Positions 2,078 through 20,080 of a stretch of 64,000 nt of DNA are shown piece by piece. How positions within the stretch are numbered: position 1 is the stretch's first letter; each line of letters starts with the position of its first letter. Both the position numbers and the translations under genes were made by a program. The notes below the pieces were generated by a model, which searched no databases, was not told the origin of the DNA, and saw nothing but the letters and a program-made list of their open reading frames with translations. The DNA comes from Chloroflexota bacterium (GTDB taxonomy: Bacteria > Chloroflexota > Anaerolineae > Anaerolineales > Villigracilaceae): the NCBI GenBank assembly GCA_016234495.1, contig JACRBI010000052.1, positions 13,789-77,788 of the forward strand, in the 5' to 3' direction.

Positions 2078-2078
2078 T

Positions 2079-2125
2079 ACCCCACCCCCAACCCCTCTCC
2101 AAGATTTGATCTTGGGGAGGGGAGA
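2079..2125. repeat. CCCTCTCCC/GGGGAGGGG-type palindromic repeat (related copy at about 48148-48200)
   Basis: CCCCTCTCCCAAGAT..ATCTTGGGGAGGGG inverted repeat. Confidence 0.65.
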
Positions 2126-2138
2126 AAAGGAGAATGCC

Positions 2139-3560
2139 ATGTCAAAAACACTCGTCATGAAATTTGGAGGGACATCCGTCGGCTCGGTGGCTGCGCTCGT
2201 CAGCGCCACAGAGATCATTCGCGATGCAAAGAAGGATTGGGACAGAGTCGTCGTCGTGACATCGGCCATGTCTGGAGTGACGAACCTGCTATTAGACTCT
2301 GCCGCATCCGCTTCGCAAGGGAAAGTGGATACACTTCCAGCAGCAGAGTCAGCGCTGAGAGAAAAACACTTCGCCGCCGCCGATGCGCTCATCAAAGATG
2401 AAAAACTTCGCGAGCAGACAAAATCCGAAATCAACGCGCTCATCCTCTCACTCGTGGATTTGTGCAAAGCCATTGCCGTACTCGGCGAAGCCAGCCCGCG
2501 CGCGATGGACGCAGTGGCCTCTCTCGGCGAAAGAATGAGCGTCCGCTTGCTGGGCGCAGTCGCGAATGCGGCAGGCATCCAGGCCAAAGCCATCGACTCG
2601 ACCGAGTTCGTCATCACCAATGCACATTACCAGAACGCGCACCCCGATTTCAAGGTCACGACCGAAAAGACGCGGGAAATTTTGAATCCATTAATGAATG
2701 CGGGCGTCATCCCAATTACAACGGGCTTTATCGGCGCAACGCCTGAAGGCACAATTACAACTTTGGGACGCGGCGGCAGCGATTATTCCGCCGCCATCAT
2801 CGGCGCAGTTCTCCCCGCGGATGATGTCTGGATCTGGACAGATGTGGACGGCGTGATGACCACCGACCCGCGCATTGTGCCGGAAGCGGTCACCCTGCCT
2901 GAGATCAATTACAGCGAAATCGCGGAACTCGCTTATTATGGCGCGAAGGTTTTGCATCCCAAGACCATCCGCCCTGTGCTAGATGCGGGCATTGGCCTGC
3001 GGATTTGCAACACGTTCAACCCCAGTCACCCCGGCACGCGCTTGATTGCCAATGTCAAAAGCAACGGCAAAGTGGATGGAAAAGTCATCAAGGCTGTGAC
3101 CGCCATCCGCAGGCAGAGGTTGATTACCATCGAAGGGCGCGGTATGCTGGGTGTGCCCGGCGTCGCGGCGCGTGCCTTCGGAGCAGTGGCATCCACGGGC
3201 ACAAGCGTTCCGCTCATCACGCAGGCCTCATCGGAACAGTCCATTTGTTTTGCTGTACCATCCGAACTTGCGCCGACAGTTTTATCCGCGCTTGAAAAGG
3301 CCTTCGCCGCTGAAATCACCGATCAGGATATTGACCGCGTCTGGTCCACCGAGGACATTTCGATCATCACCGTCGTCGGTGCAGGGATGCGGCATACGCC
3401 CGGCGTTTCGGGCCGCGTGTTCAGCAAACTCGGCAATGACGGAGTCAACGTGCTTGCCATCGCGCAAGGTTCTTCGGAAGTGTCCATCTCGCTCGTCGTC
3501 GAAGCGGCGGATACGGAGAATGCGGTCAAGGCGTTGCATGAACTTATTGTTGCAGGTTAA
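2139..3560 (+). CDS. lysC: Aspartate kinase with two C-terminal ACT domains
   Basis: VMKFGGTSV, VVVTSAM, TTLGRGGSDYSA, WTDVDGVMTTDPR; AGGAG RBS before ATG 2139. Confidence 0.95.
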   Translation: MSKTLVMKFGGTSVGSVAALVSATEIIRDAKKDWDRVVVVTSAMSGVTNLLLDSAASASQGKVDTLPAAESALREKHFAAADALIKDEKLREQTKSEINALILSLVDLCKAIAVLGEASPRAMDAVASLGERMSVRLLGAVANAAGIQAKAIDSTEFVITNAHYQNAHPDFKVTTEKTREILNPLMNAGVIPITTGFIGATPEGTITTLGRGGSDYSAAIIGAVLPADDVWIWTDVDGVMTTDPRIVPEAVTLPEINYSEIAELAYYGAKVLHPKTIRPVLDAGIGLRICNTFNPSHPGTRLIANVKSNGKVDGKVIKAVTAIRRQRLITIEGRGMLGVPGVAARAFGAVASTGTSVPLITQASSEQSICFAVPSELAPTVLSALEKAFAAEITDQDIDRVWSTEDISIITVVGAGMRHTPGVSGRVFSKLGNDGVNVLAIAQGSSEVSISLVVEAADTENAVKALHELIVAG

Positions 3561-4792: not shown

Positions 4793-4911
4793 CTCTTATC
4801 CAGAGAAGCTGAGGGACCGACCCTTTGACGCTTCGGCAACCAAACGAAAGTTCAGGTGCCAAATTCGGCAAATAGGAATGGCGCAAGTCATTCATATCTG
4901 GAAGATGAGAG
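4793..4911 (+). ncRNA. SAM-I (S-box) riboswitch aptamer
   Basis: CTCTTATCCAGAG..GAGGGAC..GACCCT..GGCAACC..GGTGCCAAATTC..GATGAGAG, upstream of methionine genes. Confidence 0.95.
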
Positions 4912-5032: not shown

Positions 5033-6322
5033 ATGTCCACAAATGATCGCAAGTTAGGCTTTGCCACCCGCCAGCTTCACGCGGGCTATTCCCCCGACCC
5101 CACTACAGGGAGCCGCGCCGTGCCGTTGTATCAGACAACGAGCTATCAATTCAAGAACACCGAACACGCCGCGAATCTGTTCGCACTCAAAGAGTTGGGA
5201 AATATTTACACGCGTTTGATGAACCCGACCACCGATGTGCTCGAACAGCGCATTGCTTCGCTCGAAGGCGGAGTCGCAGCCCTCGCTTCGAGTTCGGGTC
5301 ATGCCGCGCAGGCGCAGGCGATCTTTACGCTGTGCAACGCGGGCGACCATATCGTGACATCCTCCCGTTTGTACGGCGGGACATACAGCCAGTTCAAGTA
5401 CAGCCTGCCCAAGTTGGGAATCGACGTGACCTTTGTTGACCCCTCCGACCCGAAGAATTTTGAAGCGGCGATCCAGCCGAACACAAAAATCATTTACGGT
5501 GAGACATTGGGCAACCCCGATATTTCCGTCTTCCCGTTTGAGGAAGTTGCGGCGATCGCGAAAAAGCATAATCTCGTATTGTTCATTGATAACACCTTCG
5601 CCACGCCGTACTTGTTCCGTCCGTTTGAATGGGGCGCAAATGTGATCACGCATTCCACAACCAAGTTCATCACCGGCAATGGGACTTCCATCGGCGGCAT
5701 CATCGTGGACGGCGGCAACTACGATTGGACGAGCGCGAAGTTCCCCAACTTCAACACCCCCGACCCGTCTTATCACGGGCTGGTGTACTCCTCCATTGCT
5801 GCGGCGGGACTTCCCCCCTTCGCGATCAAAGCTCGTGTGCATGTGCTGCGTGATATCGGCGCGTGCCAGTCACCGTTCAATTCATGGCAGACCTTGCTCG
5901 GCATCGAAACGCTCAACCTGCGCATGGATCGTCACACGCAGAACGCGCAAGCCGTGGCTGAATTTTTGGAGAAGCACCCGAAGGTCAACTGGGTCAAGTA
6001 TCCCGGGCTCAAGAGTCACCCCGATTACGACCGCGCGAAGAAATATCTTCCAAAGGGCGTCGGCGCGATGATGGGCTTCGGGGTCAAAGGCGGGCTGGAA
6101 GCAGGCAGGAAGTTCATCGAGAGTCTGCAACTGTTCAGCCACGTTGCTAATGTCGGCGACTCGCGCAGCCTTGCCATTCACCCGGGTTCCACCACGCACA
6201 GCCAGTTGACCGAAGAACAGCAGGTCACCGCCGGCGTCAGCCCGGACTTCGTGCGTCTCTCCATCGGTCTCGAGGATATTGATGATATTCTCTGGGATTT
6301 GGATCAGGCGCTCAACGCGTAA
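5033..6322 (+). CDS. metY: O-acetylhomoserine aminocarboxypropyltransferase (sulfhydrylase)
   Basis: [22 protein letters not shown] (PLP Lys), [13 protein letters not shown]. Confidence 0.93.
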
Positions 6323-6375: not shown

Positions 6376-7296
6376 ATGCCTGTAAAAATACCCTCCACCC
6401 TTCCCGCCCGTACTGTTCTCGAAAACGAGAACATCTTCGTCATGGATGAAGACCGCGCCATCCATCAAGACATCCGCGCCCTGCGTGTTGCGATTCTGAA
6501 TCTCATGCCCACCAAGATCGCCACCGAGACGCAGATCCTGCGCCTGCTATCCAACTCCGCGCTTCAAGTTGAAGTGACACTCCTTCACACGGCCACATAC
6601 GAATCCAAAAACACCGACGCCGATCATTTGCTGGAACACTACGTCACATTTGAAGATGTAAAGCATGAAAAATTCGACGGCCTCATCGTCACCGGCGCGC
6701 CTGTCGAGCAGATGCCCTTCGAGGAAGTGGATTACTGGAATGAACTGACTCAGATTCTCGATTGGGCTGAGACGAATGTTGAATCCAATTTTTATATTTG
6801 CTGGGGAGCGCAAGCCGCGCTATTTCACAAATACGGCGTCCCCAAATATGACCTCCCAAATAAGATGTTCGGTGTCTACGAGCACCGCATCCTTTCCTCG
6901 ACCGAAAGCCTGCTGCGCGGTTTCGACGACATTTTCCTCGCCCCGCACTCCCGTCACACCGAGATCCGCCGCGCCGACATTGAAAAGATTCACGACCTGC
7001 AAATCCTCGCCGAGTCAGATGAAGCTGGCGTGTACATCGTCGGCACGAAGGATGGGCGGCATCTCTTCATCACCGGCCACTCGGAATATGATCCGCTCAC
7101 CCTCAAAGGCGAATATGACCGCGATGTGAACAAGGGACTGCCCATCCACGTCCCGCAAAATTATTATCCAAAGAATGACCCAACCCAACCTCCAAATGTT
7201 CGTTGGCGCGGACATGCTAATTTATTGTATGCAAACTGGTTGAATTATTACGTCTATCAAGTCACACCGTACGACCCGAATGAAATCCCAAAATAA
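6376..7296 (+). CDS. metA: Homoserine O-acyltransferase, MetA family (acetyl-type signature)
   Basis: ILNLMP, TGAPVE, ICWGAQA, TGHSEYD. Confidence 0.93.
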
Positions 7297-7309
7297 TGAA
7301 GGGTCACCC

Positions 7310-8353
7310 CTACGCGGTTAATTTGATCAGTGCCGCGCACAACACACCCACCGCTTTTTGATAATCCTCCAAATTGATGTGCTCGTTTGGCGTATGGTCC
7401 AGCGCAGAATCACCGGGACCATAAACAAGAGCGGGACATTTCCACACCGGGGCGACGATGTTTAGGTCAGCGGTTCCTGTTTTATAGACGAAACGCGGCT
7501 CCCCGCCCTGTGAGCGGATTCCGCTTAAGAAAGCACGCACCAGCGGAGTATTTTTCCCGCAATCCCACGCAGGGATGGCGAAACCAATTGGCTCGACCTG
7601 CGTTTGCGGCTCGTGAGTGACCATGTTTAGAATCTCGTACCAATCACTGGGCGAAACGGACACAGGCAATCGGACTCCCACCTTTAATCGCGCCCATTGA
7701 TCAAAATCATTCGAGTCTGAATCCATGCCGCGCAAGGTGAGTAATAATTTATCAAACACCTTTTGCTTTTCAGCGTTGAATGAATCCACGTAGGCTTTGA
7801 CTTTCAGCCACGCATCCACCGCCGCTTCCGCCGCGGTCACTTCTCCGCTCGCCGAATGGACTTGTCCGCGCTTGACCGTCACATTTGCCCACGCGCTTCC
7901 TTTATATCCCAGCGCGACTCGATCCCATTGATTCGGTTCGCCGATGATCGCAAAATCAGGCTTGTATTGGGTCGCCACAAATCTCGCGCCTTCGGAATCG
8001 CGCTCCTCCTCCACCGCGCCGATCACAACGAACTGCCAATCATCTTTCGCGCCAACCTTTGCCACCGCATCTACAAAGCACGCCAGCGGACCTTTCGCAT
8101 CGGCAGAGCCGCGCCCGTACAAAACGCCATCATCCACGCGCACGAGAATCTCCCCCGCCACCGTATCAATGTGACCGAGCAACACCACCTGCCGCGCCCC
8201 CTTCCCCATCACGCCGACAGCATTCCCCGCTTCGTCAATGAACGCATCGTCATAACCCAGTGACTTCATCCGCGCCACGAGCCATTCCACCGCGCCGCGC
8301 TCCTGTCCGGAGGGGCTATATTGGGAGACAAGTCCGATTAGTGTTTCGCTCAT
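7310..8353 (-). CDS. lysK: [LysW]-ornithine/lysine hydrolase (M20 family)
   Basis: LLGHIDTV, GRGSADAKG, VEEE, GEPN..LGYKG, YGPGDSALDHTPNE. Confidence 0.88.
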   Translation of the reverse strand: MSETLIGLVSQYSPSGQERGAVEWLVARMKSLGYDDAFIDEAGNAVGVMGKGARQVVLLGHIDTVAGEILVRVDDGVLYGRGSADAKGPLACFVDAVAKVGAKDDWQFVVIGAVEEERDSEGARFVATQYKPDFAIIGEPNQWDRVALGYKGSAWANVTVKRGQVHSASGEVTAAEAAVDAWLKVKAYVDSFNAEKQKVFDKLLLTLRGMDSDSNDFDQWARLKVGVRLPVSVSPSDWYEILNMVTHEPQTQVEPIGFAIPAWDCGKNTPLVRAFLSGIRSQGGEPRFVYKTGTADLNIVAPVWKCPALVYGPGDSALDHTPNEHINLEDYQKAVGVLCAALIKLTA

Positions 8354-8409
8354 TGTGATTCCTGATTCTGGAAAATGGTTGATGGAGAATGGTTTAAATC
8401 CATTTTCCA

Positions 8410-9585
8410 TTAACCATTTATCTCTTGTGTTAAGGCTTCTGCCAAAACATCAACCAGAAGGTCTATTTGTTCGTACGTGATCACCAGCGGCGGCAATAAA
8501 CGAATCACGGTCATACCTGCATTCAAGGCGATGATCTTTTTCTCCTGCAACGTCTTGAGATATGGCGCGACCTTCTGCTTCATTTCAATACCGATCATCA
8601 AGCCAAGTCCGCGCACTTCGCGGATGTTCGGAGATTGAATTGCGCGCAATTTCTCCATCAAATATGCGCCCTTCGCCGCGGCTTGAGCAGGCAGGTCTTC
8701 GTCGCGCATCACATCCAGCGCCGCATTCGCCGCCGCGCACGAAAGCGGATTCCCGCCAAAGGTGGAGCCATGCACGCCGGGCGTCAGGTTCTTCACGTTG
8801 GGTCCGATCAACACCGCGCCCATCGGCACTCCTCCAGCCAGCGACTTGGCACAGGTCAACAGATCAGGCACAACGTCAAAGTGTTGAACCGCGAACATCT
8901 TGCCCGTGCGTCCAAATCCCGTTTGAATTTCATCCACGATCAACAATGCGCCGCGCTCATCGCAAATATTTCGGGCGGCTTGAATGTATTCGAGCGTAGC
9001 GGGATACACTCCGCCTTCTCCTTGCACCACTTCGAGAATCACTGCGGCGGTTTCTTCGTTCACGGCTTTATCCAACGCTTCGATGTTGTTGTATGAAACA
9101 TGCGAAACGCCGGGCAGAAGCGGCTCAAATCCTTCACGATATTTTTTATTGAATGTCGCCGAGAGCGAGCCGAATGTTCTTCCATGAAATGCGCGCATCG
9201 CGGCGATGAAATTTTTTCGTCTAGTGGAAATTCGAGCGAACTTGAACGCCGCCTCCACCGCTTCAGTGCCCGAGTTGCAAAAGAAGACTCGATCCAAGCC
9301 ATCCATCAGCGACGTAATTTTTTGCATCAACATCGCGCGTTGATCGTTCGGGAAGGTCTCGAACAAAGTCACCAGCGTATTCGCCTGCTTGTAGAGCGCC
9401 TCCGCAATTTTTGGGTGCGCATGACCGAGATTGGCAACGCCGTGCCCCGACGAGCAATCCAAATATTCCACGCCGTCAATATCGAACAACGAAGCGCCTT
9501 GTCCGCGAACGATGGTCAGGGTTTGTTTGGCATACACGCCAGAGGTGTGTTTGTTTTCGATTTCGATTATTTCGTTTGCTTTCAT
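8410..9585 (-). CDS. lysJ: [LysW]-semialdehyde transaminase (class III PLP)
   Basis: [35 protein letters not shown]; operon context. Confidence 0.88.
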
Positions 9586-10403
9586 TGAATCACCGTTCCG
9601 TTTCCTGCCAACGCATTCGATATGGGATTTTGAATTCTTCCATCAGCGATAATGACGCGACTCACGCCGCTTTTGAGCGCTTCCTCTGCGCCTAAAACTT
9701 TTTTCTTCATGCGACCCTGCGCCGCTTCACTCGCCGCCGGCAGTTGACTCTGCGGCAGCAGCCGAATGAGCGTGGTCTCGTCTGGGAAATTTTTCATCAG
9801 CCCCGGCACCGCCGTGAGCAACAGCAGAGTCTCCGCCTTGAGCGCAGACGCCACCATCGCCGCCGCGCGGTCAGCATCCACATTCAACGCCTCGCCTTTT
9901 TCGCTGACCGCCACAGGCGCAATCACTGGCAGGTAACCCATGTTCAGCAACACCATTAACAATTCACCATTAACCCTCTCGATCTTTCCCGTGTAATCAT
10001 CGCGGATAATTTTGCGCTTGCCGTTTTCAATGCTCTGCACAGACTCTTTGCGTATGGCTTGGATTAACTTGCCGTCAAGTCCGCATAGCCCAAACGCGTT
10101 GACTCCCAGCATTTGCAACTGTTCCGTCAACAACGAATTGACCTTGCCATTCACCGCCATCAAAAAGATTTCCAGCGTCTTGCGGTCGGTGTAGCGCGAG
10201 GTATAACCCGAAGGCGAAGTGATCATCTTCGGCGGAGCGCCCAACCCTTCACCAAGCGCGTTCGCTTCAGCCGACCCGCCATGCACAAAGACAAGGCGTT
10301 TGCCCTGTTTCAATAATTCCACGGCGTCGGCACAGATCGCAGAAAAATCCACGCCTTCCGTACCACCAAGTTTAACCACTGTAATAGAAGTATCAGTTAA
10401 CAT
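9582..10403 (-). CDS. lysZ: [LysW]-glutamate/aminoadipate kinase
   Basis: VVKLGG, VHGGS, SPSGYTSRYTD, LNVDADRAA, GRMKKK. Confidence 0.9.
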   Translation of the reverse strand: MLTDTSITVVKLGGTEGVDFSAICADAVELLKQGKRLVFVHGGSAEANALGEGLGAPPKMITSPSGYTSRYTDRKTLEIFLMAVNGKVNSLLTEQLQMLGVNAFGLCGLDGKLIQAIRKESVQSIENGKRKIIRDDYTGKIERVNGELLMVLLNMGYLPVIAPVAVSEKGEALNVDADRAAAMVASALKAETLLLLTAVPGLMKNFPDETTLIRLLPQSQLPAASEAAQGRMKKKVLGAEEALKSGVSRVIIADGRIQNPISNALAGNGTVIQ

Positions 10404-10422
10404 AATTCCTGTTCCTAATTTT

Positions 10423-10498
10423 GAAAGGATGAAGGATGAAATATGAAGGATGAATTTTTGCATTCAGTTTTCATCCTTCATCCTTCTGTCTTCATCCT
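10423..10498. repeat. Compound palindrome of 7-nt GGATGAA units
   Basis: GGATGAAGGATGAA..TTCATCCTTCATCC. Confidence 0.8.
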
Positions 10499-11532
10499 TA
10501 AATTGGATGAAGACCCATAAACTCCAGCCCCGTCGTCTCATCCCAACCCATCATCAAATTGAGACACTGAACCGCCGTCCCAGACGCGCCCTTCATGAGA
10601 TTATCAATCGCGCACATTGCCACGATATGACCGTTGCTCTCATCCAGTTCAAAGCCGAGGTCGGCGTAGTTTGAGCCAGCGAGAATCTTCGGTTCAGGGA
10701 CGCGGTAAATCCCCCGCTGTTCCTTCACCACGCGCACGAAGAGATTTTCATTCGCCACGGCACGATACGCCTTCCACAAATCTTTTGTCGCCACGCCAGA
10801 TTTCACTTTGGCGTGAGCCGTCGCCAAAACGCCGCGCACCAAATCCACAGCGGTCATGGTCAGCGAAACATCTTTAACGCCCATCTCTTGAATCACTTCC
10901 GCCGTGTGACGATGACCAAACGCAGAGAACGTCCGTATCACGTTCGCCCGTTCCGCATGAAGCGAACCAGAATTTCCTTCCGCGCCGCCTTCGGAGGAGC
11001 CAACTTTGATTTCAATAAAGATTGGAGAAGATAAGTCCAACAAATCCGCTTTAACGAGCGGCAATAATGCGAGGTTGCTCGCTGTGGCATTGCATCCCAC
11101 CCCGCTGATGTAACTGGCTTTGGAGATTTCTTCGCGATGAAGTTCAGGCAAGCCGTACACAAACTTATTCAACCACTCAGGCGCGGCGTGTTTTTCACCG
11201 TACCATTTTTCGTAGAAGGCAGAGTCTCTTAAACGGAAGTCCGCCGCAAGGTCAATGATGCGCGGCGCAAGTTTTGCATACTGCTCGATGTTATGTTGCG
11301 CCTGTCCGTGCGGCTGCGCGAGGAAGAGAACATCCACAGGCTCCAGCGCGGCAGGATCGCTAAACTTGAGTTGAGTCCGCTTGCGAAGATTCGGGTGGAC
11401 TTGATACACATATTCGCCCAAATGCGAGCGTGACGTCACCTGCTTGATCTCCACATTGGGATGCCCAAGCAGAAGGCGCAATAATTCCCCGCCGCCATAT
11501 CCCGAACCGCCGATGATGGATACTGTTGTCAT
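10498..11532 (-). CDS. lysY: [LysW]-glutamyl/aminoadipyl-phosphate reductase (ArgC-like)
   Basis: IIGGSGYGGGELLRLL, GCNAT, GSSEGG, IDNLMKGASG. Confidence 0.9.
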   Translation of the reverse strand: MTTVSIIGGSGYGGGELLRLLLGHPNVEIKQVTSRSHLGEYVYQVHPNLRKRTQLKFSDPAALEPVDVLFLAQPHGQAQHNIEQYAKLAPRIIDLAADFRLRDSAFYEKWYGEKHAAPEWLNKFVYGLPELHREEISKASYISGVGCNATASNLALLPLVKADLLDLSSPIFIEIKVGSSEGGAEGNSGSLHAERANVIRTFSAFGHRHTAEVIQEMGVKDVSLTMTAVDLVRGVLATAHAKVKSGVATKDLWKAYRAVANENLFVRVVKEQRGIYRVPEPKILAGSNYADLGFELDESNGHIVAMCAIDNLMKGASGTAVQCLNLMMGWDETTGLEFMGLHPI

Positions 11533-11552
11533 CAATCATTACTCCTAAATAT

Positions 11553-11636
11553 TTAACCACAAAGGGCACGAAGGTCACTAAGGAAGAACAAAAAACTTGG
11601 TTTTCCCTTTGTGCTCTTTGTGTCCTTCGTGGTTAA
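11553..11636. repeat. Compound palindrome of 9-nt CACRRAG-like units (family also at 40582-40653 and, in frame, 41402-41476)
   Basis: AACCACAAAGGGCACGAAGGTCACTAAGG...CCTTTGTGCTCTTTGTGTCCTTCGTGGTT. Confidence 0.8.
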
Positions 11637-12499
11637 TTTTTTTCTTTCGCCGTCTTCACCACATATTCCACAATCTCCCCCGCAATATCAATGCCGCTCA
11701 ACGGCTGCATCGTGTGGAATTCCATCGTGTGATTGATCTCGTTGACGACGAGTCCCTTTTGTGGATGCTCCACCAAATCCACACCGAGCAAGCCGCCGCC
11801 AACCGCCTTCGATGCGCGCAAACAAATATCCTCGATCTCTGGCGTGATGGGACACAACTCACCGCTTCCGCCGCGCGCCGTGTTCGTGATCCAATGCTCC
11901 GAGTTGCGATACATCGCCGTCAAGACGCGGTCTCCGATCATAATCGCGCGGATGTCACGCCCGGGCTTCTCGATGTATTCCTGAATATAAAACACGGAAT
12001 GCTGCACCGATCCCAGAGTGGATTTATGTTCAAGCACCGCTTCCGCCGCATCACGGTCATTGACTTTCGCCAGCAGTCGTCCCCACGAACCGACGACAGG
12101 CTTCAACACAACGGGATACCCAAACGCTTCAATCGCTTCGAGTGCGGCTTCGGGCGTAAACGCCGTCGCATTGTGCGGCTGCGGAACTCCGTCACGCGCA
12201 AGGGCCGCGCTGGTCATCAACTTGTCGCCGCAAATCTCCGCCACCGAAGCAGTGTTCACCGTCGGCACACCGAAGGCATTCAACAAGCGCAAGGCATACA
12301 ATCCGCTGTTGTAACTGATGCTGCGCTCCAGCACCGCATCATATTGCTTCCAACTTTCGGGTTTATCCAAATCAAAATGGATCGCGCGGTCATCGAGTCG
12401 GTCATAGTCAATGCCGCGTTTTTCCATCGCGCCGAAAATCCATTTCTCTTCGACGCGCACGCGGGAATAAAGGACGCCTATCTTGAGTCTTCTTTGCAT
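11633..12499 (-). CDS. lysX: LysW ligase, ATP-grasp (LysX/ArgX)
   Basis: [48 protein letters not shown]. Confidence 0.92.
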
Positions 12500-12511
12500 A
12501 AATTCTCCATT

Positions 12512-12574
12512 GGATGACCGTAGACCGTGGACGATAGACCGTTCCACTGTCCACGGTCTATCGTCCATCGTCGG
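12512..12574. repeat. Compound palindrome of 7-nt GACCGTA-like units (family also at 31405-31458, 31950-32003, 33915-34012, 52093-52152)
   Basis: GACCGTAGACCGTGGACGATAGACCG...CGGTCTATCGTCCATCGTC. Confidence 0.8.
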
Positions 12575-12745
12575 TTATTCACCCCAATCTTCCTGTTCCA
12601 TCGGCGCGAGTTGAATTGCCGCAGGGTCAACAGACGTCACTTCGAGATCCACGCCGCAATCCGAGCAGACAATGATTTCGCCAACTTCGGTTCCAGCCGC
12701 CAATTCAACTTGGGCTTCACATTCAGGGCAGGTTACAGTAGACAT
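12575..12745 (-). CDS. lysW: Amino-group carrier protein LysW (56 aa), missing from the ORF track
   Basis: Manual translation MSTVTCPECEAQVELAAGTEVGEIIVCSDCGVDLEVTSVDPAAIQLAPMEQEDWGE*; two CxxC and C-terminal EDWGE. Confidence 0.95.
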   Translation of the reverse strand: MSTVTCPECEAQVELAAGTEVGEIIVCSDCGVDLEVTSVDPAAIQLAPMEQEDWGE

Positions 12746-12748
12746 GAT

Positions 12749-14107
12749 TTATTCTCCTTTGATTTTTTGTATTTGATTTTTTACCGATTGAAGACTCGTG
12801 CCTCCAACCGTATTTCTTTTATTGATCGATTCCAGCGGATCAAAGACCTGATAAACATCCGCTTCAAACGGACCGAGAGCCTGATACGCTTCGAGCGGCA
12901 TTTTCTCCAACGATACATTTCTCTCCCCCGCCTCGCGGACGGCTTTTCCTGCCAGCGAGTGCGCTTCTCTAAACGGCACGCCTTTCACCACGAGATAATC
13001 TGCCAGGTCGGTCGCCATCATCGTGGAATCAATCGCGCCACGCATTCGCTCAGGCCTGGCAGTGATCGTCCGCAGTGCGCCAGCAATGACAGGCAGAATG
13101 GCAAGCAAAGTATCCGTCGCCGCGAAAACGGGTTGCTTGTCTTCCTGTAAATCCTTGTCGTAGGTGGACGGCAACCCTTTGAGCGTGGCAAGCAGACCCG
13201 TTAACATGCCAATCAGCGTGCCAGATTTTCCGCGCGTGAGTTCAAACACATCGGGGTTTTTCTTCTGCGGCATGAGGCTTGAGCCAGTTGAAAACGCATC
13301 CGACAACTCGAAGAATCCAAACTCGGCGCTGGTGTACAAAACAATCTGCTCGGCGAGTTTGCTTAAGTGAATTCCAATCATCGTGGCGCAGAATAAATAT
13401 TCGGCGGCAAAATCTCGGTCGGATACGGAGTCGAGGCTGTTTTGCGAAGGCTCGGCAAAGCCAAGCGACTTTGCCAACGCGGCGCGGTCAACGGGGATGG
13501 GTGTGCCTGCGAGCGCGCCAGAACCAAGAGGCAAAACCGAAAGGCGCGGAATTAAATCTGTGAGGCGTGCGCGGTCACGTCCCAGCGGATGAAAGTGACT
13601 CAGCCACCAATGCGAAAGCAGAATCGGCTGGGCGCGTTGCAGATGGGTGTAGCCCGGCATGATGGTTGCGCCTGCAAGTTCGGCTTGCTCGACAAGAGTA
13701 GTTTGCAGGTTGAGGATTGCGGAATTTAATTGTGGAATTGTCTGCAACATCCACATTCTGAAATCAGTGGCGACTTGGTCGTTGCGGCTGCGTCCCGTGT
13801 GCAGTTTGCCAGCGGCGGGTCCGATCAATTCGCCGAGTCTTCTTTCAACGGCAGTGTGGATGTCTTCGTCAGCGGGAGCGAAGATGAACTCACCCGAAGC
13901 GAATTCTCCTTTGACAGTATCCAGCCCGAGGGCGATCGATGCGTGCTCCTCATCCGAAAGAATGCCCGACTTGTGAATCGCATCTGCCCAAGCGATAGAA
14001 CCATCCACATCCTGAATTGCCATGCGCTGATCGACAGGCAGGGACGAGTTGAGCGCCCATGCGAGGTCATCTAGTTTTTGTGAAAAGCGTCCGCCCCAAA
14101 GGGTCAT
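12749..14107 (-). CDS. argH: Argininosuccinate lyase
   Basis: LWGGRF, LHTGRSRNDQ, MPGYTHLQRAQP, TGSSLMPQKKNPD. Confidence 0.96.
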   Translation of the reverse strand: MTLWGGRFSQKLDDLAWALNSSLPVDQRMAIQDVDGSIAWADAIHKSGILSDEEHASIALGLDTVKGEFASGEFIFAPADEDIHTAVERRLGELIGPAAGKLHTGRSRNDQVATDFRMWMLQTIPQLNSAILNLQTTLVEQAELAGATIMPGYTHLQRAQPILLSHWWLSHFHPLGRDRARLTDLIPRLSVLPLGSGALAGTPIPVDRAALAKSLGFAEPSQNSLDSVSDRDFAAEYLFCATMIGIHLSKLAEQIVLYTSAEFGFFELSDAFSTGSSLMPQKKNPDVFELTRGKSGTLIGMLTGLLATLKGLPSTYDKDLQEDKQPVFAATDTLLAILPVIAGALRTITARPERMRGAIDSTMMATDLADYLVVKGVPFREAHSLAGKAVREAGERNVSLEKMPLEAYQALGPFEADVYQVFDPLESINKRNTVGGTSLQSVKNQIQKIKGE

Positions 14108-14116
14108 AGTTACCTC

Positions 14117-14172
14117 GTTGATTAGGTACTTAGGGATTAGGAATCGGTTTTCCTAATTACCTAATTCCTAAT
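14117..14172. repeat. Compound palindrome of GATTAG-type 7-8-nt units (family also at 16595-16618, 28302-28372, 49305-49369)
   Basis: GATTAGGTACTTAGGGATTAGG...CCTAATTACCTAATTCCTAATC. Confidence 0.75.
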
Positions 14173-15439
14173 CCCTTTTGAACTTCGAATAATCGGGCTT
14201 CGGCATATCGAGACCTGAAACAGGCAGACCGTTCATCGCGCGGACTTTCATGCTAAGACCAAACAGGCGAATGAACCCTTCGGCGTGACTCTGGTCGTAA
14301 ACATCTTCCTGACCAAAGGTGGCGAAATCTTCGCGATATAAACTGAACGGAGATTTGCGCCCCGCGCTGATGATGTTGCCCTTGTAAAGTTTGAGTCGCA
14401 CCGTGCCAGTGACGGGGCCTTGCGTGGAGTTGACGAAGGCATCCAACGCTTCGCGCAGCGGCGTGAACCACAGTCCGTTGTACGTGAGTTCGGCATATTT
14501 GACAGCGACGACCTGTTTGTAGTGCAGGGTTTCGCGGTCGAGGATGAGCGACTCAAGTTCGCGGTGGGCATACAAAAGAATCGCGCCGCCCGGAGTTTCG
14601 TACACGCCATGCGATTTCATGCCGACGAGTCGATTCTCCACAAGGTCAACGCGGCCAATTCCGTGCGCGCCGCCGATGGCGTTGAGCGTTTCGACAATTT
14701 TAGCGGGCGAAAGTTTTTCACCGTTAACCGCAATCGGATTGCCGCTCTCGAATTCGATCTCAACGTATTCACCTTCATCGGGCGCATTTTCCGGTGAAGT
14801 GGACATCTGGTACATGATCTCTTCGGGTTCGTTCCACGGGTCTTCGAGCAAACCGCCTTCGTGCGAAAGATGCCAGAGGTTTGAGTCGCGGCTGTAAATG
14901 GATTTGATGGTGGCGGTCACAGGGACGTTGTGCTTCGCGGCATAAGCGATTGCATCTTCGCGCGAGCGAATGTCCCACTCGCGCCACGGAGCGATGATCT
15001 TGAGTCGCGGGTCGAGCGCCATGACAGTCAACTCAAAACGAACCTGATCATTGCCCTTGCCTGTCGCGCCGTGTGCAATCGCATCTGCACCTGTCTCGTG
15101 AGCCACATCCACGAGATGTTTTGCGATTAGCGGGCGAGCCACGGAGGTGCCGAGCAAATATTTATGCTCGTACACCGCGCCCATCTTCAACATGGGAAAA
15201 AGATAATCAGCGGCGAATTCCTCCTTCATGTCGTGGATGATGAACTGGCTCGCGCCGCTCTTGATTGCCTTCTGTTCAAGCCCCGCCAAATCTTCGTCAC
15301 CCTGACCCACGTCCGCGCAGAAACACACCACTTCACAGCCGTAGTTTTCCTTCAGCCACGGCACGATCACGGACGTATCCAGCCCGCCCGAATAGGCGAG
15401 GACAACTTTCTTTACTTGCGGTTTTGACTTTAGACTCAT
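14168..15439 (-). CDS. argG: Argininosuccinate synthase
   Basis: [30 protein letters not shown]; AGGAG RBS before ATG 15439. Confidence 0.96.
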
Positions 15440-15542
15440 TTTTACTCCTTGATTTTTTTGAACCGCGAAGCCCGCCAAGGGCGCCAAGAAAAAATCTTTT
15501 TTTCTCTTCGCGCACTTCGCGCACTTTGCGGTAAGTTGACCT

Positions 15543-15584
15543 AAAAAAGAAATAAAAACAGCCCTCCGAGAAGGAGGGCTGTTT
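15543..15584 (-). terminator. Intrinsic terminator (attenuator) in the argG leader
   Basis: Minus strand AAACAGCCCTCC-TTCTC-GGAGGGCTGTTT followed by a T-rich tail. Confidence 0.85.
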
Positions 15585-15605: not shown

Positions 15606-15713
15606 CTAATTCACATCTGCGTTCGTTCCGCCGTCAAAACAAAAAACTCCCGACCTTCTCTGAGAAGTGGGCTTCGGACGACGTGTACGCGGGAGTGCAA
15701 AAAAGCTGGACAT
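15606..15713 (-). CDS. Arg-rich candidate leader peptide (35 aa, MSSFFALPRTRRPKPTSQRRSGVFCFDGGTNADVN)
   Basis: Manual translation; five Arg codons (CGT, CGT, CGT, AGA, AGG) between promoter and terminator upstream of argG. Confidence 0.7.
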   Translation of the reverse strand: MSSFFALPRTRRPKPTSQRRSGVFCFDGGTNADVN

Positions 15714-15723
15714 GTTGGGCGGT

Positions 15724-15751
15724 ATTCTACTCGAAATGTGAAATGAGTCAA
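15724..15751 (-). promoter_or_regulatory. sigma70-type promoter of the arg/lysW operon leader
   Basis: Minus strand TTGACT-16 nt-TAGAAT. Confidence 0.7.
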
Positions 15752-15797: not shown

Positions 15798-16586
15798 TTA
15801 TTTTAAAATCTGTTTCATCATCTGTGAGATGGATTGATAGACGGGGGATTCGTCGCCGAGGTCAATCAACGGCTTGCCTGAAAATTCAAACTCAGAGAGG
15901 ATGTCATCTGCGGGGACAGTGCCAAGCAGGGGCAGATCCATTTTTTCGACGAAGGATCTCAACTCGGCGGGCATATCGCCCCGCAGCCTGTTGACTACGA
16001 CATAGGCATTCTCGATGCTGATGTCAAGTTCCTTGCGCATGTCGGCGATGCGTTGGGCAGTGACCAGCCCGCGCTGGGTCGGGTCGCTGACAATGAGCAG
16101 GTGCTGCACATCACGAGTGGTGCGGCGGGAGAGGTGTTCCATGCCTGCTTCATTATCAATGACGACATAAGCATAATGTTTGCTCATATCGTCAATCACT
16201 TCGCGCAAATTATGATTGACCGCGCAATAGCATCCCTGGCCTTCGCCGCGTCCCATTGCGATCAGGTCAAAGCGCGAGCCTTCAGCCAAAGATGTGCGGA
16301 TGTGATAATCGAGATATTCACGCTTGCTCGCGCCGCCGGGCATGGTGCCCATGGCCGCGCCGCCGTTGGTCAATGACGACTTGACCTGCTCCAACATCCC
16401 TTCGCGGATTTCGCCAACCGTCCATTCGAGGTCGAGGCCAAGCACCATGTTGAGGTTCGAGGCGGGGTCGGCGTCAATGGCGAGAATGCTGCCTGGTTGA
16501 TTCTGGGCAAGGTATTTGATGACCATGCCTGCGATGGTGGTTTTGCCAACTCCGCCTTTTCCGGCTAACGCAATCGTTGTGGTCAT
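15798..16586 (-). CDS. cooC: CooC/AcsF-type nickel-insertion ATPase
   Basis: GKGGVGKTT, DADP, GCYC, IDNEAGMEHLSR. Confidence 0.9.
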   Translation of the reverse strand: MTTTIALAGKGGVGKTTIAGMVIKYLAQNQPGSILAIDADPASNLNMVLGLDLEWTVGEIREGMLEQVKSSLTNGGAAMGTMPGGASKREYLDYHIRTSLAEGSRFDLIAMGRGEGQGCYCAVNHNLREVIDDMSKHYAYVVIDNEAGMEHLSRRTTRDVQHLLIVSDPTQRGLVTAQRIADMRKELDISIENAYVVVNRLRGDMPAELRSFVEKMDLPLLGTVPADDILSEFEFSGKPLIDLGDESPVYQSISQMMKQILK

Positions 16587-16594
16587 GTGATCTC

Positions 16595-17368
16595 CTAATC
16601 TCTAATATCTAATCTCTTGAGAATCTTTTCAGCCGCATCTTTGAGCGCCGGCACATGGTCATACACGGGGATGTTGAGTCTGTCGGCTTCCTGCACTTTC
16701 ATATCAGCAGCGAGGAAGCCGAGGACGGGCAAGCCGGGAGTTTCTGTTTCCAGAAATTTTGCTTCATCCTCGTTGCGGACCTTGTTGCCGACAAGATATA
16801 AACGTTTGAGTCCGATGTCATTGGCGAGTTTTTTGATCTGCGCGGCGGTACCGAGACTGCGGCGGGTGGGTTCGACGACAATGAGCATTGCATCCACGAA
16901 GTCAACTGTGGCGCGGCCAAGATGTTCGACGCCGGCGTACATGTCGAGGAGAAGCACATTGTCTTTGCGGAAGAGCAGATGCGTGAACAAGGTTTTGAGC
17001 ATCGCGGCTTCGGGGCAGATGCAGCCGGAGCCGCCAAGTTCCACGCTGCCCATTTCGAGCAGGCGCACACCGCGGTGGAGAATGCTAAATCGTTCGGGGA
17101 TGTCATCAACACGCGGGTTGATGGTGAAGAAGCCGCCGACGGTGCCGGGCTTTGCACCTGTGCGTTCTTCGATGAGCGAGTCCATCTCGGCGATGGGATG
17201 GAGTTGGGCACGCAGTTCTTCGGGGAAGCCTAATGCTCCAGCGAGGCAGGGGCTTGGGTCGGCGTCCACAGCTAAAACGTCACGGCCCTGATCCGCATAT
17301 GCCTGCGCAAGAAGCGCTGTCAGTGTAGTCTTCCCCACGCCGCCTTTGCCAGTGATCGCAAGTTTCAT
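16595..17368 (-). CDS. cooC: CooC-type nickel-insertion ATPase (second paralog)
   Basis: GKGGVGKTT, DADP, GSGCICPE, DMYAGVEHLGR. Confidence 0.9.
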   Translation of the reverse strand: MKLAITGKGGVGKTTLTALLAQAYADQGRDVLAVDADPSPCLAGALGFPEELRAQLHPIAEMDSLIEERTGAKPGTVGGFFTINPRVDDIPERFSILHRGVRLLEMGSVELGGSGCICPEAAMLKTLFTHLLFRKDNVLLLDMYAGVEHLGRATVDFVDAMLIVVEPTRRSLGTAAQIKKLANDIGLKRLYLVGNKVRNEDEAKFLETETPGLPVLGFLAADMKVQEADRLNIPVYDHVPALKDAAEKILKRLDIRD

Positions 17369-17572
17369 AACTTCATATTACAACGCATTCTATAAAAGAA
17401 AGCGGGCTATTCATCCTGAATTTGGATGACACTAATAACTTTTATCCATATTTCAAGTGACAATAGGCACAAGGAAGTTGTACAGGCAAAATGCTAGAAT
17501 GATATGAGTAAGAGTTCATATCTTTAGCGGTGTCTTCGCGCAAGTCATCATCCTGTTTGAGGAGGTGTTTGT

Positions 17573-17959
17573 ATGGAGGCCAAATCGTTCGAAGCGCCTG
17601 CGCTTTACGGAGACCATCATGTTTCCGAGGTGAGGCGGATATTGCTTGAGTTGACGGGGGTCAGTGATGTGTATGCGAGCAGCGCCTTTCAAGTTATCGA
17701 AGTCCAGTACGATCCGGAGAAAATCAAAGCCGAGCAGATCAGCGCATGTTTGGAAGCGGCGGGTTATCTCGGCGAAGTTCCGATGCTGACCGAGACAGGC
17801 GTCGCGGCTGAGAAGATTGGCGGAGATCATTTCTTCCGGCATACCGCCGTTTATGAAACTGTCAAAGAGACTGTTTCCTTTGCCCAGCGCGTGGACTATA
17901 GCGGACGCCCGCTCTGGCCCTGCCCGGGCATGGGTCCTGTCAAAATGATTGACGAGTAA
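17573..17959 (+). CDS. HMA-fold protein with atypical YGDHH metal loop; candidate Ni chaperone
   Basis: Pattern ..ALYGDHHV.EV...L..L.GV..V...........YDP.......I...L..AGY; first gene of the CODH/ACS operon. Confidence 0.6.
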   Translation: MEAKSFEAPALYGDHHVSEVRRILLELTGVSDVYASSAFQVIEVQYDPEKIKAEQISACLEAAGYLGEVPMLTETGVAAEKIGGDHFFRHTAVYETVKETVSFAQRVDYSGRPLWPCPGMGPVKMIDE

Positions 17960-17972
17960 CTGGAGGTGAATC

Positions 17973-19985
17973 ATGCCAAAGAAACGAGAGATTAAAGATT
18001 ATTCAACTGACCCAGCCGCACAGCAGATGTTGATCCGCGCGGATGAGTTGGGAATTGGCACAGCTTTTACCCGCGCAGACGCCATGGTTCCGTGCAATAT
18101 CGGTGGCGCTGGGATGTGCTGCAAGCAATGCGGCATGGGTCCCTGCCGTTTGACCAAGAGCGGCGACACCGGCGTATGCGGCGCGACCATCGACACGATT
18201 CAAGCCCGCAACCTGACGCGCGCAATTGCGGCAGGCGGTGCGGCTCACTCCGACCACGGGCGGGACATGGCGTTCCTGTTGAAGGCGGCTGCCGAAGGAA
18301 AAGCCGAAGGCTACATGATCCGCGATGTGGCAAAACTGCGGATGGTGGCTGGCTATTACAACATCAAGGTGGATGGCCGCAAACCCGAAGAAATTGCGAA
18401 TGATCTGGCTGATCTGTATATTTCGCAATTCGGTCAGCAGCGCGGCGAGATCGTCCCTGCCATCCGCGCGCCCAAAAAGAGACAGCAGCTCTGGCGCGAA
18501 CAAAACGTCTGGCCGCGCGGCGTGGATCGTGAAGTGGTCGAGGCGCTGCACCGCACACACATCGGCGACGACCAGGACCCCGCTCACATTTTGAATCATG
18601 CGATTCGCACCGCGCTGGCCGACGGCTGGGGCGGCTCGATGATCGCAACTGACATCTCGGATATTTTGTTCGGCATACCTGCGCCGATTTTAGGTCAGGC
18701 GAATCTCGGCGTTATTAAAGAAGACATGGTCAACGTGGTGGTGCATGGTCACGAACCTTCGATGAGTGAAATGCTGGTCGCAGCGTCACAAGACCCGGAG
18801 ATCATTGATTATGCAAAGGCGGCCGGCGCGAATGGGATTCAACTTTCGGGAATCTGCTGTACCGCAAACGAAATCCTGATGCGGCAGGGCATCCCTGCGG
18901 CGGGCAACTTCCTGCATCAGGAACTCTCGATCATGACGGGCGCAGTCGAAGCGATGGTCGTGGATGTGCAGTGCATCATGCAGGCGCTGGTCGGTTTGGC
19001 GCAGAACTTCCACACCAAGATCATCACCACTTCACCAAAGGTCAAGATCAAGGGCGCGACACATATTGAATTTGACGAACATCACGCGCTAACCGTTGCA
19101 AGGAATATTCTCAAAGTTGCAATTGATAATTTCAAGAACCGCGACAACAACAAAACACGCATTCCGCAAATCAAAGAAGATTTGATCCCCGGCTTCTCGC
19201 ACGAATATATCAACTACATGCTCGGAGGCTCGTACCGCGCATCCTTCCGCCCGTTGAACGACGCCATCATGACCGGGCGCATTCGCGGCGTGGCGGCGAT
19301 TGTCGGATGCAACAATCCGCGCTCGTCGCAGGATTATTTGCATAACGTGGTCGTGAAGGAATTGCTCAAACAGGATGTGCTGGTGGTGCAGACCGGCTGC
19401 GGCGCGATCTCGTCAGCCAAACTCGGTCTCATGTTGGGCGAAGCAGGCCTGAGCGAAGTCGGAAACGGCTTGCGCGAAATCTGCGAAACGGTGGGAATCC
19501 CGCCAGTCCTGCACATGGGTTCGTGCGTTGACAATACCCGCATCCTGACCGTGTTGACTCAAATGGTGGAAGACGGCGGACTCGGCGATGATATTGACCA
19601 GGTTCCGGCGGTCGGTCTTGCTCCCGAATGGATGAGCGAAAAAGCGCTGGCGATCGCGGCGTACGTGGTTGCTTCGGGCGGATATGTCATCTTCGGCGGC
19701 GCATCACCTGTGAGCGGCATGGAACGAGTCGATGACAGCGACGAAGTGCTGCACTACATCAGCGAAGGCTGGGAAAAACTATACGGCGGCAAGCTGGAGT
19801 TTATTCCCGATCCGCAAAAGATGATCGAAGCCACGCTCGCGCACATTGACAAGAAACGCGCCGCGCTTGGCCTGCCTGAATATGACCCTGATAAATTTGG
19901 CAAATCTGGCGACGCAAAGATGAATGCGCTCGAAGCGATGCCAATTGCGCAGAGACGCGAAGCGATTTACGGAGTAGTCGAATAG
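17973..19985 (+). CDS. cooS: Anaerobic Ni-Fe carbon monoxide dehydrogenase catalytic subunit (AcsA/CooS)
   Basis: CCKQCGMGPC, VHGHEP, GICCTANE, DVQCIM, GCNNP, TGCG, MGSCVDN, WMSEKA. Confidence 0.95.
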   Translation: MPKKREIKDYSTDPAAQQMLIRADELGIGTAFTRADAMVPCNIGGAGMCCKQCGMGPCRLTKSGDTGVCGATIDTIQARNLTRAIAAGGAAHSDHGRDMAFLLKAAAEGKAEGYMIRDVAKLRMVAGYYNIKVDGRKPEEIANDLADLYISQFGQQRGEIVPAIRAPKKRQQLWREQNVWPRGVDREVVEALHRTHIGDDQDPAHILNHAIRTALADGWGGSMIATDISDILFGIPAPILGQANLGVIKEDMVNVVVHGHEPSMSEMLVAASQDPEIIDYAKAAGANGIQLSGICCTANEILMRQGIPAAGNFLHQELSIMTGAVEAMVVDVQCIMQALVGLAQNFHTKIITTSPKVKIKGATHIEFDEHHALTVARNILKVAIDNFKNRDNNKTRIPQIKEDLIPGFSHEYINYMLGGSYRASFRPLNDAIMTGRIRGVAAIVGCNNPRSSQDYLHNVVVKELLKQDVLVVQTGCGAISSAKLGLMLGEAGLSEVGNGLREICETVGIPPVLHMGSCVDNTRILTVLTQMVEDGGLGDDIDQVPAVGLAPEWMSEKALAIAAYVVASGGYVIFGGASPVSGMERVDDSDEVLHYISEGWEKLYGGKLEFIPDPQKMIEATLAHIDKKRAALGLPEYDPDKFGKSGDAKMNALEAMPIAQRREAIYGVVE

Positions 19986-20078
19986 TCTGCTAGTCCACTA
20001 GTCCGCTAGTCTTCTAGTCATTGACGAGAGGACTGCGACTAGGAGACCAGAAGACAAGGAGACTAGGAGAGAGACTAA
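19983..20078. repeat. Compound palindrome of 8-nt CTAGTC-type units
   Basis: CTAGTCCACTAGTCCGCTAGTC...GACTAGGAGACCAG..GACTAGG. Confidence 0.75.
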
Positions 20079-20080
20079 CT

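Follow-up and report, generated by a model that had tools for sequence, protein, structure and literature searches.

The argG-argH-lysW operon

We analyzed a 64-kb stretch of DNA (contig JACRBI010000052.1; hereafter, the window) from a groundwater metagenome, which holds a candidate operon for arginine synthesis on a LysW-type amino-group carrier protein. Eight intact genes lie on the minus strand at 7310-15439 in the order argG-argH-lysW-ligase-lysY-lysZ-lysJ-lysK, each matching its family over its full length (Table 1). An earlier, sequence-only reading of the window had placed this one-strand cluster at the same coordinates and had remarked that lysW was skipped by the open reading frame (ORF) track; both observations held, the 56-aa LysW falling below the 60-aa default. 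The carrier (MSTVTCPECEAQVELAAGTEVGEIIVCSDCGVDLEVTSVDPAAIQLAPMEQEDWGE) has an N-terminal zinc ribbon with two CxxC pairs (CPEC…CSDC) and a C-terminal EDWGE, and the adjacent ligase has the GSWGR motif that recognises EDWGE, as do 85 of 85 copies in relatives. With the ArgB/C/D/E-like kinase, reductase, aminotransferase, and M20 hydrolase clustered beside them, the hallmarks of a LysW pathway are present. The host is an Anaerolineales bacterium (Chloroflexota): the ligase's top matches are 85-96% identical proteins from metagenome-assembled genomes (MAGs) of Anaerolineales/Chloroflexota, including Candidatus Villigracilis. Metagenome run X1 contains 89% of the window's sampled words. A look-up of the window's ArgH by exact sequence gave no hit in the protein collection, and this genome is therefore absent from that collection.

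The sequence-only reading had described the junctions as short or overlapping. This was accurate for lysZ/lysJ and lysJ/lysK, which overlap by up to 4 nt, and for argH/lysW, where the 3-nt gap leaves no promoter-like space, but not for the remaining gaps, i.e., 60 nt between argG and argH, ~75 nt between lysW and the ligase gene, and ~95 nt each for ligase/lysY and lysY/lysZ. Several starts differ from those of the mechanical ORFs. The ATG of argG is preceded by AAGGAG (its ORF extends to a TTG at 15487), the ligase probably begins at MQRRLKIG (ORF to 12568), homologues of LysZ begin at MLTDTS (ORF to 10463), and lysK starts at 8410 or 8353. A terminator-like hairpin (7299-7311) lies at the end of lysK.

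To compare the locus among relatives, we scanned one genome per species, obtaining 80 loci, and compared the window's proteins by tblastn. The eight-gene order was kept in every locus long enough to judge, with exactly one lysW per locus; since this order recurs across related species, the cluster is not a product of chance. In 11 species, argF (ornithine carbamoyltransferase; TIGR00658, 398 bits, cut-off 281) lies between the ligase gene and lysY, and in these species three arginine-specific genes are therefore embedded among the carrier genes.

Table 1. Features of the operon, its leader, and related loci (L-numbers denote loci of relatives; all other coordinates are those of the window).
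Feature	Coordinates	Strand	Match or remark
argG, argininosuccinate synthase	14168-15439	-	NF001770, 637 bits
argH, argininosuccinate lyase	12749-14107	-	TIGR00838, 558 bits
lysW/argW, amino-group carrier protein	12575-12745	-	TIGR01206, 64 bits (cut-off 53.2); PF21344
Putative ArgX-type LysW ligase (ATP-grasp, LysX family)	11633-12499	-	TIGR02144, 346 bits; PF22626
lysY/argC-like [LysW]-glutamyl/aminoadipyl-phosphate reductase	10498-11535	-	TIGR01850, 374 bits
lysZ/argB-like [LysW]-amino-acid kinase	9582-10403	-	NF010659, 388 bits
lysJ/argD-like [LysW]-semialdehyde aminotransferase	8410-9585	-	NF042418, 501 bits
lysK/argE-like [LysW]-ornithine/lysine hydrolase (M20 peptidase)	7310-8410	-	NF003367, 384 bits
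Sigma-70-type promoter, TTGACT-16 nt-TAGAAT	15724-15751	-	10/12 matches
Leader peptide ORF, 35 codons	15606-15713	-	MSSFFALPRTRRPKPTSQRRSGVFCFDGGTNADVN
Regulatory Arg codons (CGT)	15687-15689, 15681-15683, 15678-15680	-	
Hairpin 1 (segments 1:2) and U-run	15636-15671	-	CCCACTTCTC…GAGAAGGTCGGG; 92-97% of cells paired
Intrinsic terminator T2 and T-run	15540-15584	-	AAACAGCCCTCC-TTCTC-GGAGGGCTGTTT; stem 15584-15556; just upstream of argG
Imperfect palindrome, REP (repetitive extragenic palindrome)-like	15463-15531	-	between terminator and argG ribosome-binding site
REP-like imperfect palindromes	10404-10497, 11540-11630		lysY-lysZ gap and ligase-lysY gap
argF-containing loci	L032, L035, L038, L040, L049, L052, L055, L056, L057, L060, L065		e.g., L049:11009-11941
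Lys-codon leaders	L058:1087-1385, L014:1506-1762, L086:5177-5430		also ~16 other loci
Aspartokinase-asd leader region	1893-2140	+	promoter TTGACC-17 nt-TAGAAT

Specificity of the lysW-adjacent ligase

Substrate choice in LysX-family ligases is set by five residues (182, 192, 203, 258, and 259 in Thermus numbering), which read F-I-T-N-S in the strictly aminoadipate (AAA)-specific LysX of Thermus, I-Y-V-G-F in the glutamate-specific ArgX of Sulfolobus, and Y-I-T-N-A in the bifunctional ligase of Thermococcus (PMC12998189). The last two are Ala-Leu in Natrinema ArgX, which is glutamate-specific in vitro (PMC10433800), and the full motif of Halorubrum ArgX is L-M-A-A-L. Aligned to Thermus LysX, the window ligase reads I-M-T-T-M; four of the five residues are changed, only T203 is kept, and the enzyme does not carry the motif F182-I192-T203-N258-S259 of Thermus-type LysX, an aminoadipate-LysW ligase of class EC 6.3.2.43; we predict instead a glutamate-LysW ligase such as ArgX, EC 6.3.2.60. 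With the haloarchaeal enzymes it shares an aliphatic residue at 182, Met192, the lack of Asn258, and a hydrophobic residue at 259. Among relatives, 84 of 85 lysW-adjacent ligases have I or V, then M-T-T, then M, L, I, V, or A, while the one remaining copy has T in first place; 74 have exactly I-M-T-T-M.

Other motif variants were also seen. A LysX-family ligase of Paenibacillus campi (P0137/P0278) has the ArgX-like motif L-M-T-G-F, and x-M-x-(G/A)-(L/F/I) motifs occur in other representatives, which are from high-GC organisms. Annotation may understate how widespread LysW ligases of the glutamate type, or of another non-AAA type, are in Bacteria.

A second ligase and the aminoadipate module

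At least a third of the relatives have a second ligase, present in 21 of the 61 loci whose upstream sequence was long enough. It shares only ~52% identity with the first ligase, and its motif is exactly F-I-T-N-S in all 22 copies. It usually ends a block comprising homocitrate synthase (TIGR02146, 416 bits; a regulatory domain lies at its C-terminus), the large and small subunits of homoaconitase, and homoisocitrate dehydrogenase, i.e., the AAA route to lysine. The position of this block is fluid: it may lie directly upstream of the operon, co-oriented or inverted, or 5 kb away, or the ligase may occur alone. It adjoins the operon in close relatives such as L006, L007, and L014, whose lysW-adjacent ligases are 93-94% identical to that of the window, and 40 of the 61 loci have no AAA gene or second ligase within 10 kb. 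The simplest reading of the two motifs would be that the F-I-T-N-S ligase loads aminoadipate and the lysW-adjacent ligase loads glutamate.

The sequence-only reading had found no homocitrate synthase, homoaconitase, or homoisocitrate dehydrogenase gene next to the operon. We found none of these, nor a second ligase, in the entire 64-kb window, but many close relatives have them, and the step from missing AAA neighbors to an arginine-only system had to be given up. Where the AAA block and second ligase are adjacent, there is still one lysW and one lysZ/Y/J/K set; therefore, the aminoadipate branch must use them. Furthermore, the MAG JAIXKJ01 splits the two between contigs. Contig 8 (L060) has the operon and, for 10 kb around it, no AAA gene, and contig 1 (L086) has a Lys-leader-hcs-hacAB-hicdh-ligase block and, for 20 kb around it, no lysW; a window-like arrangement therefore does not imply an arginine-only system. 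Since the AAA genes and their dedicated ligase lie either beside the operon or on another contig lacking lysW, the carrier and the four downstream enzymes are probably shared, and we lean towards the view that the clade's LysW core is common to arginine and lysine synthesis, as in Sulfolobus.

A link between an AAA module and the window's own genome was sought by way of a relative's AAA region in run X1. The approach was abandoned, since X1 contains several related strains at overlapping depths and no AAA sequence could be linked to the window's genome.

The Arg-codon leader

An Arg-rich leader, also pointed out in the sequence-only reading, precedes argG as a 35-codon ORF (MSSFFALPRTRRPKPTSQRRSG…), whose ATG stands 10 nt past the -10 box without a Shine-Dalgarno sequence. 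The promoter pattern TTGAC[AT]-N16-18-TA[GA]AAT is found at the equivalent place in 62 of 66 related loci, and the leader arrangement is likewise kept in 62 of the 66 (consensus, MF.LFALPR(T/S)RRPKPTS…). Variation within the ORF falls mostly on the third codon position (entropy of 7.4, 6.0, and 11.6 for positions 1, 2, and 3), and CGT is used for each of the three Arg residues in 56-59 of 59 loci, which argues that the leader is translated.

Downstream of the Arg codons, the 3' arm of hairpin 1 (GAGAAGGTCGGG) complements the 5' arm and loop of terminator T2 (CCCTCCTTCTC), giving an alternative, antiterminator helix. Across 60 sequences T2 is 97% paired, with compensatory changes at seven pairs, and the antiterminator is 86% paired, vs. 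34-70% in slid controls, with five pairs changed on both sides. We also folded nascent transcripts ending before the terminator's 3' arm from 59 loci. Results showed that segment 2 captured the terminator's 5' arm in 46 loci when a ribosome was placed on the third Arg codon, in six without a ribosome, and in none when the ribosome had moved on over segment 2. In silico, the logic of the leader seems to be that of a classical attenuator sensing charged tRNA-Arg. The REP-like palindrome that follows T2 differs across species, several relatives start argG directly after T2, and this element is probably not part of the switch.

No Rfam family was found in the leader, a search at the gathering threshold returning only an S-adenosylmethionine (SAM) riboswitch elsewhere in the window and a permissive search only sub-threshold noise; a T-box and the known leader families were rejected for want of an Rfam match. 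The window's sequence was not found in the RNA runs searched; the operon of a relative is present in wastewater metatranscriptomes.

Paralogous leaders

The AAA block of the relatives shares its promoter type and 5' end (…CGCCCAATATG) with the Arg leader. Next come a leader peptide (MFRDRASILMEAKAKRKP…, containing …AKAKRKP…) with Lys codons and the block's own hairpin and terminator, an arrangement that resembles a paralogous attenuator using Lys codons. Where the second ligase stands alone (L001:5609, L007:5276), its leader is shorter (…(S/T)KRKP…). A lysine riboswitch was looked for upstream of the relatives' AAA genes and was not found, the Lys-codon leader standing there instead.

A further leader of this design (MHNYCFGTMMTMTTTSGKF…) lies upstream of the window's aspartokinase gene (ask). 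It comprises a near-leaderless, 28-codon ORF (MHNYCFGTMMTMTTTSGKFREAFVLGQK) with its ATG at 1933, a terminator at ~2050-2078, and then a REP-like palindrome, and looks like a Thr/Met-codon attenuator; ask itself probably starts at the ATG at 2140, not at 2061. An MTMTTTTSG run is present upstream of ask in ~12 relatives and no Lys run is, and this lack of Lys codons hints, weakly, that aspartate is not the source of lysine here. The clade would therefore appear to possess a family of leaders in which Lys codons precede the aminoadipate genes, Arg codons precede argG…lysK, and Thr/Met codons precede ask-asd, which would assign the operon to arginine from the cell's regulatory viewpoint.

All three leader classes have an 8-10-nt 5' end, (A/T)(C/G)CGCCCAA(T/C), directly before the ATG and no Shine-Dalgarno sequence (15714-15723 and 1923-1932 in the window, and the equivalent position in ~100 leaders of related loci). 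This points to near-leaderless initiation of the clade's regulatory ORFs or to a conserved signal at which they initiate.

Comparison with known systems

The closest known system by organization is the haloarchaeal ArgW pathway, by logic that of Sulfolobus, and by sequence the lysine enzymes of Thermus. The haloarchaeal pathway, which the sequence-only reading had left out of its list of precedents, is arginine-specific as judged by deletion mutants of Natrinema gari J7-2 (PMC10433800), and its genes are arranged argG-argH-argW-argX-argC-argB-argD-argE-argF in both Haloferax volcanii (HVO_0049 to HVO_0041; PMC8305020) and Halorubrum salinarum (L085). The first eight are colinear with the window's genes, the carrier likewise ends in EDWGE, and the ligase, similar at positions 182, 192, 258, and 259, dedicates the pathway to glutamate, as we would predict for the window. 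However, the window's host is bacterial, the proteins are only 35-49% identical, and the ligase motif is I-M-T-T-M rather than L-M-A-A-L. The terminal argF is missing from the window (in some relatives it lies in mid-operon), and a leader-peptide attenuator is present. Haloarchaea lack an AAA module and use the diaminopimelate (DAP) route, whereas the window's clade also has the AAA-lysine module and second ligase.

In Sulfolobus, LysX and ArgX share one carrier and LysZ/Y/J/K, according to the work of Ouchi et al. (2013, Nat Chem Biol) as it is cited in later papers (PMC10433800, PMC12998189). The relatives similarly combine a single lysW and a single downstream set with two paralogous ligases that differ in motif, an arrangement that may extend to the window's genome, and in both systems AAA genes feed the lysine branch. 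The two differ in that the window's host is bacterial, that its carrier genes are joined to argG-argH under a putative Arg-codon attenuator as opposed to lys genes regulated by LysM, that the motif of ArgX is I-Y-V-G-F vs. I-M-T-T-M, and that the window shows one ligase only.

The most similar proteins are those of the Thermus thermophilus lysine pathway, which has the same EDWGE carrier and GSWGR ligase, and it is because these enzymes are closest by sequence that NCBIfam and the source annotations apply 'lysine biosynthesis' names to the operon. This LysW-mediated AAA pathway was reportedly described by Horie and coworkers in 2009, and leader-peptide attenuation of the Thermus lysine genes is said to have been described by Tsubouchi and coworkers in J Biol Chem in 2005; Thermus makes its arginine by a separate, acetylated pathway. 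It is the relatives' second ligase that has a motif identical to that of Thermus LysX, and the relatives' AAA genes that lie behind a Lys-codon leader, whereas the window ligase clusters with argG-argH rather than hcs and its regulatory codons are Arg, not Lys.

The leader resembles the classical proteobacterial attenuators (trp, his, thr, leu, and pheA) in its short ORF with end-product codons, its four-segment RNA in which antiterminator and terminator exclude each other, and its placement directly before the first biosynthetic gene. In contrast to these, it would sense arginine, its ORF starts 8-10 nt past the -10 box without a Shine-Dalgarno sequence and runs through hairpin 1, and its codons are arranged R-x-R-R instead of in a long run. 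To our knowledge, no Arg-codon attenuator has been described for arginine biosynthesis.

Proposed pathway and alternatives

We consider it likely that this is an arginine-regulated operon in which ornithine is made on LysW and arginine is finished by ArgG and ArgH. The ArgX-type ligase would join the amino group of glutamate to the γ-carboxyl of the C-terminal Glu of LysW (EDWGE), whereupon LysZ would phosphorylate the bound glutamate, LysY would reduce it to the semialdehyde, LysJ would transaminate the latter, and LysK would free ornithine from the carrier. ArgF, whose gene would lie at another site in this genome but is part of the operon in the 11 relatives, would turn ornithine into citrulline, which ArgG and ArgH would convert to arginine. 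Transcription is predicted to start ~4-5 nt before the leader ORF. If charged tRNA-Arg were scarce, a ribosome would stall at the CGU codons of PRTRR and cover segment 1, leaving segment 2 to pair with the terminator's 5' arm, and RNA polymerase would read into argG; if arginine were plentiful, the ribosome would continue over segment 2, the terminator would form, and transcription would stop. Lysine synthesis probably draws on the carrier and LysZ/Y/J/K as well, by way of the F-I-T-N-S ligase and the AAA module behind its Lys-codon leader. This module, having no lysW or lysZYJK of its own, would follow the two-ligase, one-carrier logic of Sulfolobus. The claim of the sequence-only reading that the LysW module serves arginine, rather than lysine alone, is thus supported, if indirectly, by the ligase motif, the separate AAA-type paralogue, the Arg-codon leader kept in ~60 species, the argF of 11 relatives, and the colinearity with haloarchaea; its further statement that the module replaces ArgA/J-B-C-D-E goes beyond what the 64 kb of the window can support.

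Several observations speak against this interpretation. All of the operon's functions are assigned by sequence homology. The I-M-T-T-M motif fits a glutamate-type character in lacking Asn258, in its hydrophobic residue 259, and in its non-aromatic residue 182, yet it is identical to that of no characterized ArgX, and the motif is an imperfect predictor, swaps of its residues in Natrinema having failed to switch specificity (PMC10433800). Over its length, the window ligase is 53% identical to Thermus LysX (PDB 3VPD, 315 bits) vs. 44% to haloarchaeal ArgX, and a rough, poorly resolved neighbor-joining tree placed window-type ligases among bacterial F-I-T-N-S sequences, apart from haloarchaeal ArgX. 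(As an arbiter between shared and independent origin with haloarchaeal ArgX, this tree was dropped, its resolution being too poor.) Equilibrium folding predicted the terminator in most loci even when the Arg codons were masked, and the switch would therefore be kinetic, as in other attenuators. Lastly, a core shared with lysine synthesis would make control by arginine alone awkward and hard to explain.

The annotations themselves ('lysine biosynthesis protein LysX', '[LysW]-aminoadipate kinase') imply a Thermus-like lysine cluster whose adjacency to argG-argH is meaningless. NCBIfam equivalog names and the overall similarity of the proteins to Thermus lysine enzymes speak for this, but the ligase lacks the AAA motif, which is instead carried by a separate paralogue encoded alongside the AAA genes, downstream of a Lys leader. 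Moreover, an Arg-codon leader stands directly before argG, argH runs into lysW without a promoter-like gap, argF lies inside the cluster in 11 species, and the gene order is conserved among related species and matches the haloarchaeal arginine operon, making a lysine cluster very improbable. A further proposal is that one ligase accepts glutamate as well as aminoadipate, as in Thermococcus kodakarensis, and that this one operon makes both ornithine and lysine with no need of a second ligase. The F182I exchange alone lets Thermus LysX load glutamate, with both substrates accepted, and Thermus LysZ and LysY are promiscuous (PMC12998189); the window enzyme also retains Thr203, like LysX and the bifunctional type. 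However, the bifunctional motif keeps Asn258, whereas the Thr-Met of the window at 258/259 is like the small-plus-hydrophobic pairs (G-F, A-L) of glutamate-specific enzymes, and a dedicated F-I-T-N-S ligase, as kept by the clade, would otherwise be redundant. We regard a bifunctional ligase as improbable.

An arginine-only system, in which LysW and LysZ/Y/J/K would serve ornithine alone and lysine would come from the DAP route with neither AAA module nor second ligase, deserves more weight, although we still think it unlikely. It accords with the content of the window and of the 40 related loci that show neither AAA genes nor a second ligase within 10 kb, with control by Arg codons only, and with the working precedent of haloarchaea (PMC10433800). 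Against it stand the AAA modules adjoining the operon in close relatives, the fluid position of these modules, the split layout of JAIXKJ01, and the aspartokinase leader of the window and ~12 relatives, whose Thr/Met codons fit lysine not being made from aspartate.

If the arginine operon with a shared core is taken further, a more comprehensive but tentative proposal, to which we give somewhat less than even weight, can be made for Anaerolineales, including Ca. Villigracilis. One LysW with one LysZ/Y/J/K set would serve both ornithine/arginine and lysine, as in Sulfolobus, with the flux split between two paralogous ligases. Control would lie with two paralogous leader-peptide attenuators that are essentially alike but for their regulatory codons (Arg vs. 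Lys), and the acetylated arginine and DAP lysine pathways would both be absent. The glutamate ligase might have evolved in Bacteria, from a Thermus-type LysX and separately from archaeal ArgX, or the bacterial operon might be the source of the haloarchaeal arg operon.

Other features of the loci and the window

The operon of the relatives accepts occasional insertions between genes. In L002, L003, and L075 (12097-12543), a gene of the 23S rRNA intervening-sequence family lies on the opposite strand between lysY and lysZ; several species (L008, L019, L022, L043) have 4-6-kb inserts between lysZ and lysJ; and purH follows lysZ in the L007 lineage (another insertion locus is L093:15255-16370). 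Different palindromes occupy gaps equivalent to those of the window's REP-like elements. In the source metagenome, word depth over 10150-10717 rises to 700-1800, vs. ~30-40 for the surrounding genes, which suggests a multi-copy, short repeat. One assembly (DASTJG01) has two differing operon copies on two contigs (L053, L081), suggesting a mixed bin or strain heterogeneity and thus caution for any MAG-based genome census.

We annotated the rest of the 64-kb window as well. DAP genes, argF, carAB, and argJ were not found in it. Besides the operon it encodes aspartokinase and aspartate-semialdehyde dehydrogenase and cytochrome c maturation genes. The SAM riboswitch (RF00162, 77 bits; 4793-4911, plus strand) lies upstream of O-acetylhomoserine sulfhydrylase (5033-6322), which is followed by homoserine O-acetyltransferase (metA; 6376-7296). 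Adjoining the operon is a Wood-Ljungdahl carbon monoxide dehydrogenase/acetyl-CoA synthase (CODH/ACS) cluster (15798-29879) with the CODH catalytic subunit, ACS alpha/beta, delta and gamma corrinoid subunits, AcsV activator, methyltransferase, and MetF-like reductase, together with two MinD/ParA-like ATPases that are possibly CooC/AcsF-type maturation factors. From this cluster, the host is probably an anaerobe able to fix or oxidize C1 units.

Significance

So far, archaea (Sulfolobus, Thermococcus, and haloarchaea) are the only hosts in which ornithine/arginine synthesis has been shown to depend on LysW, while LysW-type carriers in Bacteria are known for lysine (Thermus, Deinococcus) and secondary metabolites. 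Full-text literature searches turned up no account of arginine synthesis by a LysW-dependent route, whether in Chloroflexi or in other bacteria; the GapMind papers mention LysW only for archaea and Thermus, and a Thermoflexus study noted an incomplete 'LysW pathway' without interpretation. The carrier chemistry is thus already known, and what appears new, as read from the DNA, is the bacterial host, the joining with argG-argH (and argF in some species), the ligase motif, the coexisting AAA module, and the putative Arg-codon attenuator.

If this interpretation is correct, a group of Chloroflexi that is widespread in the environment and in wastewater would use a protein carrier to make arginine and probably lysine too, and current annotation and pathway predictors would wrongly score these hosts as arginine auxotrophs or mis-assign the pathway. 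The two ligases, 52% identical and with different predicted specificities, would be a natural pair for study of the five-residue motif. The Arg-, Lys-, and Thr/Met-codon leaders, with one promoter and 5' end, would constitute a compact and testable attenuator family in a phylum whose regulation is almost unstudied. The operon would also be a possible bacterial counterpart of the syntenic haloarchaeal operon, and would offer a bacterial test case for the idea that separate lysine and arginine routes were preceded by a bifunctional carrier pathway (PMC12998189).

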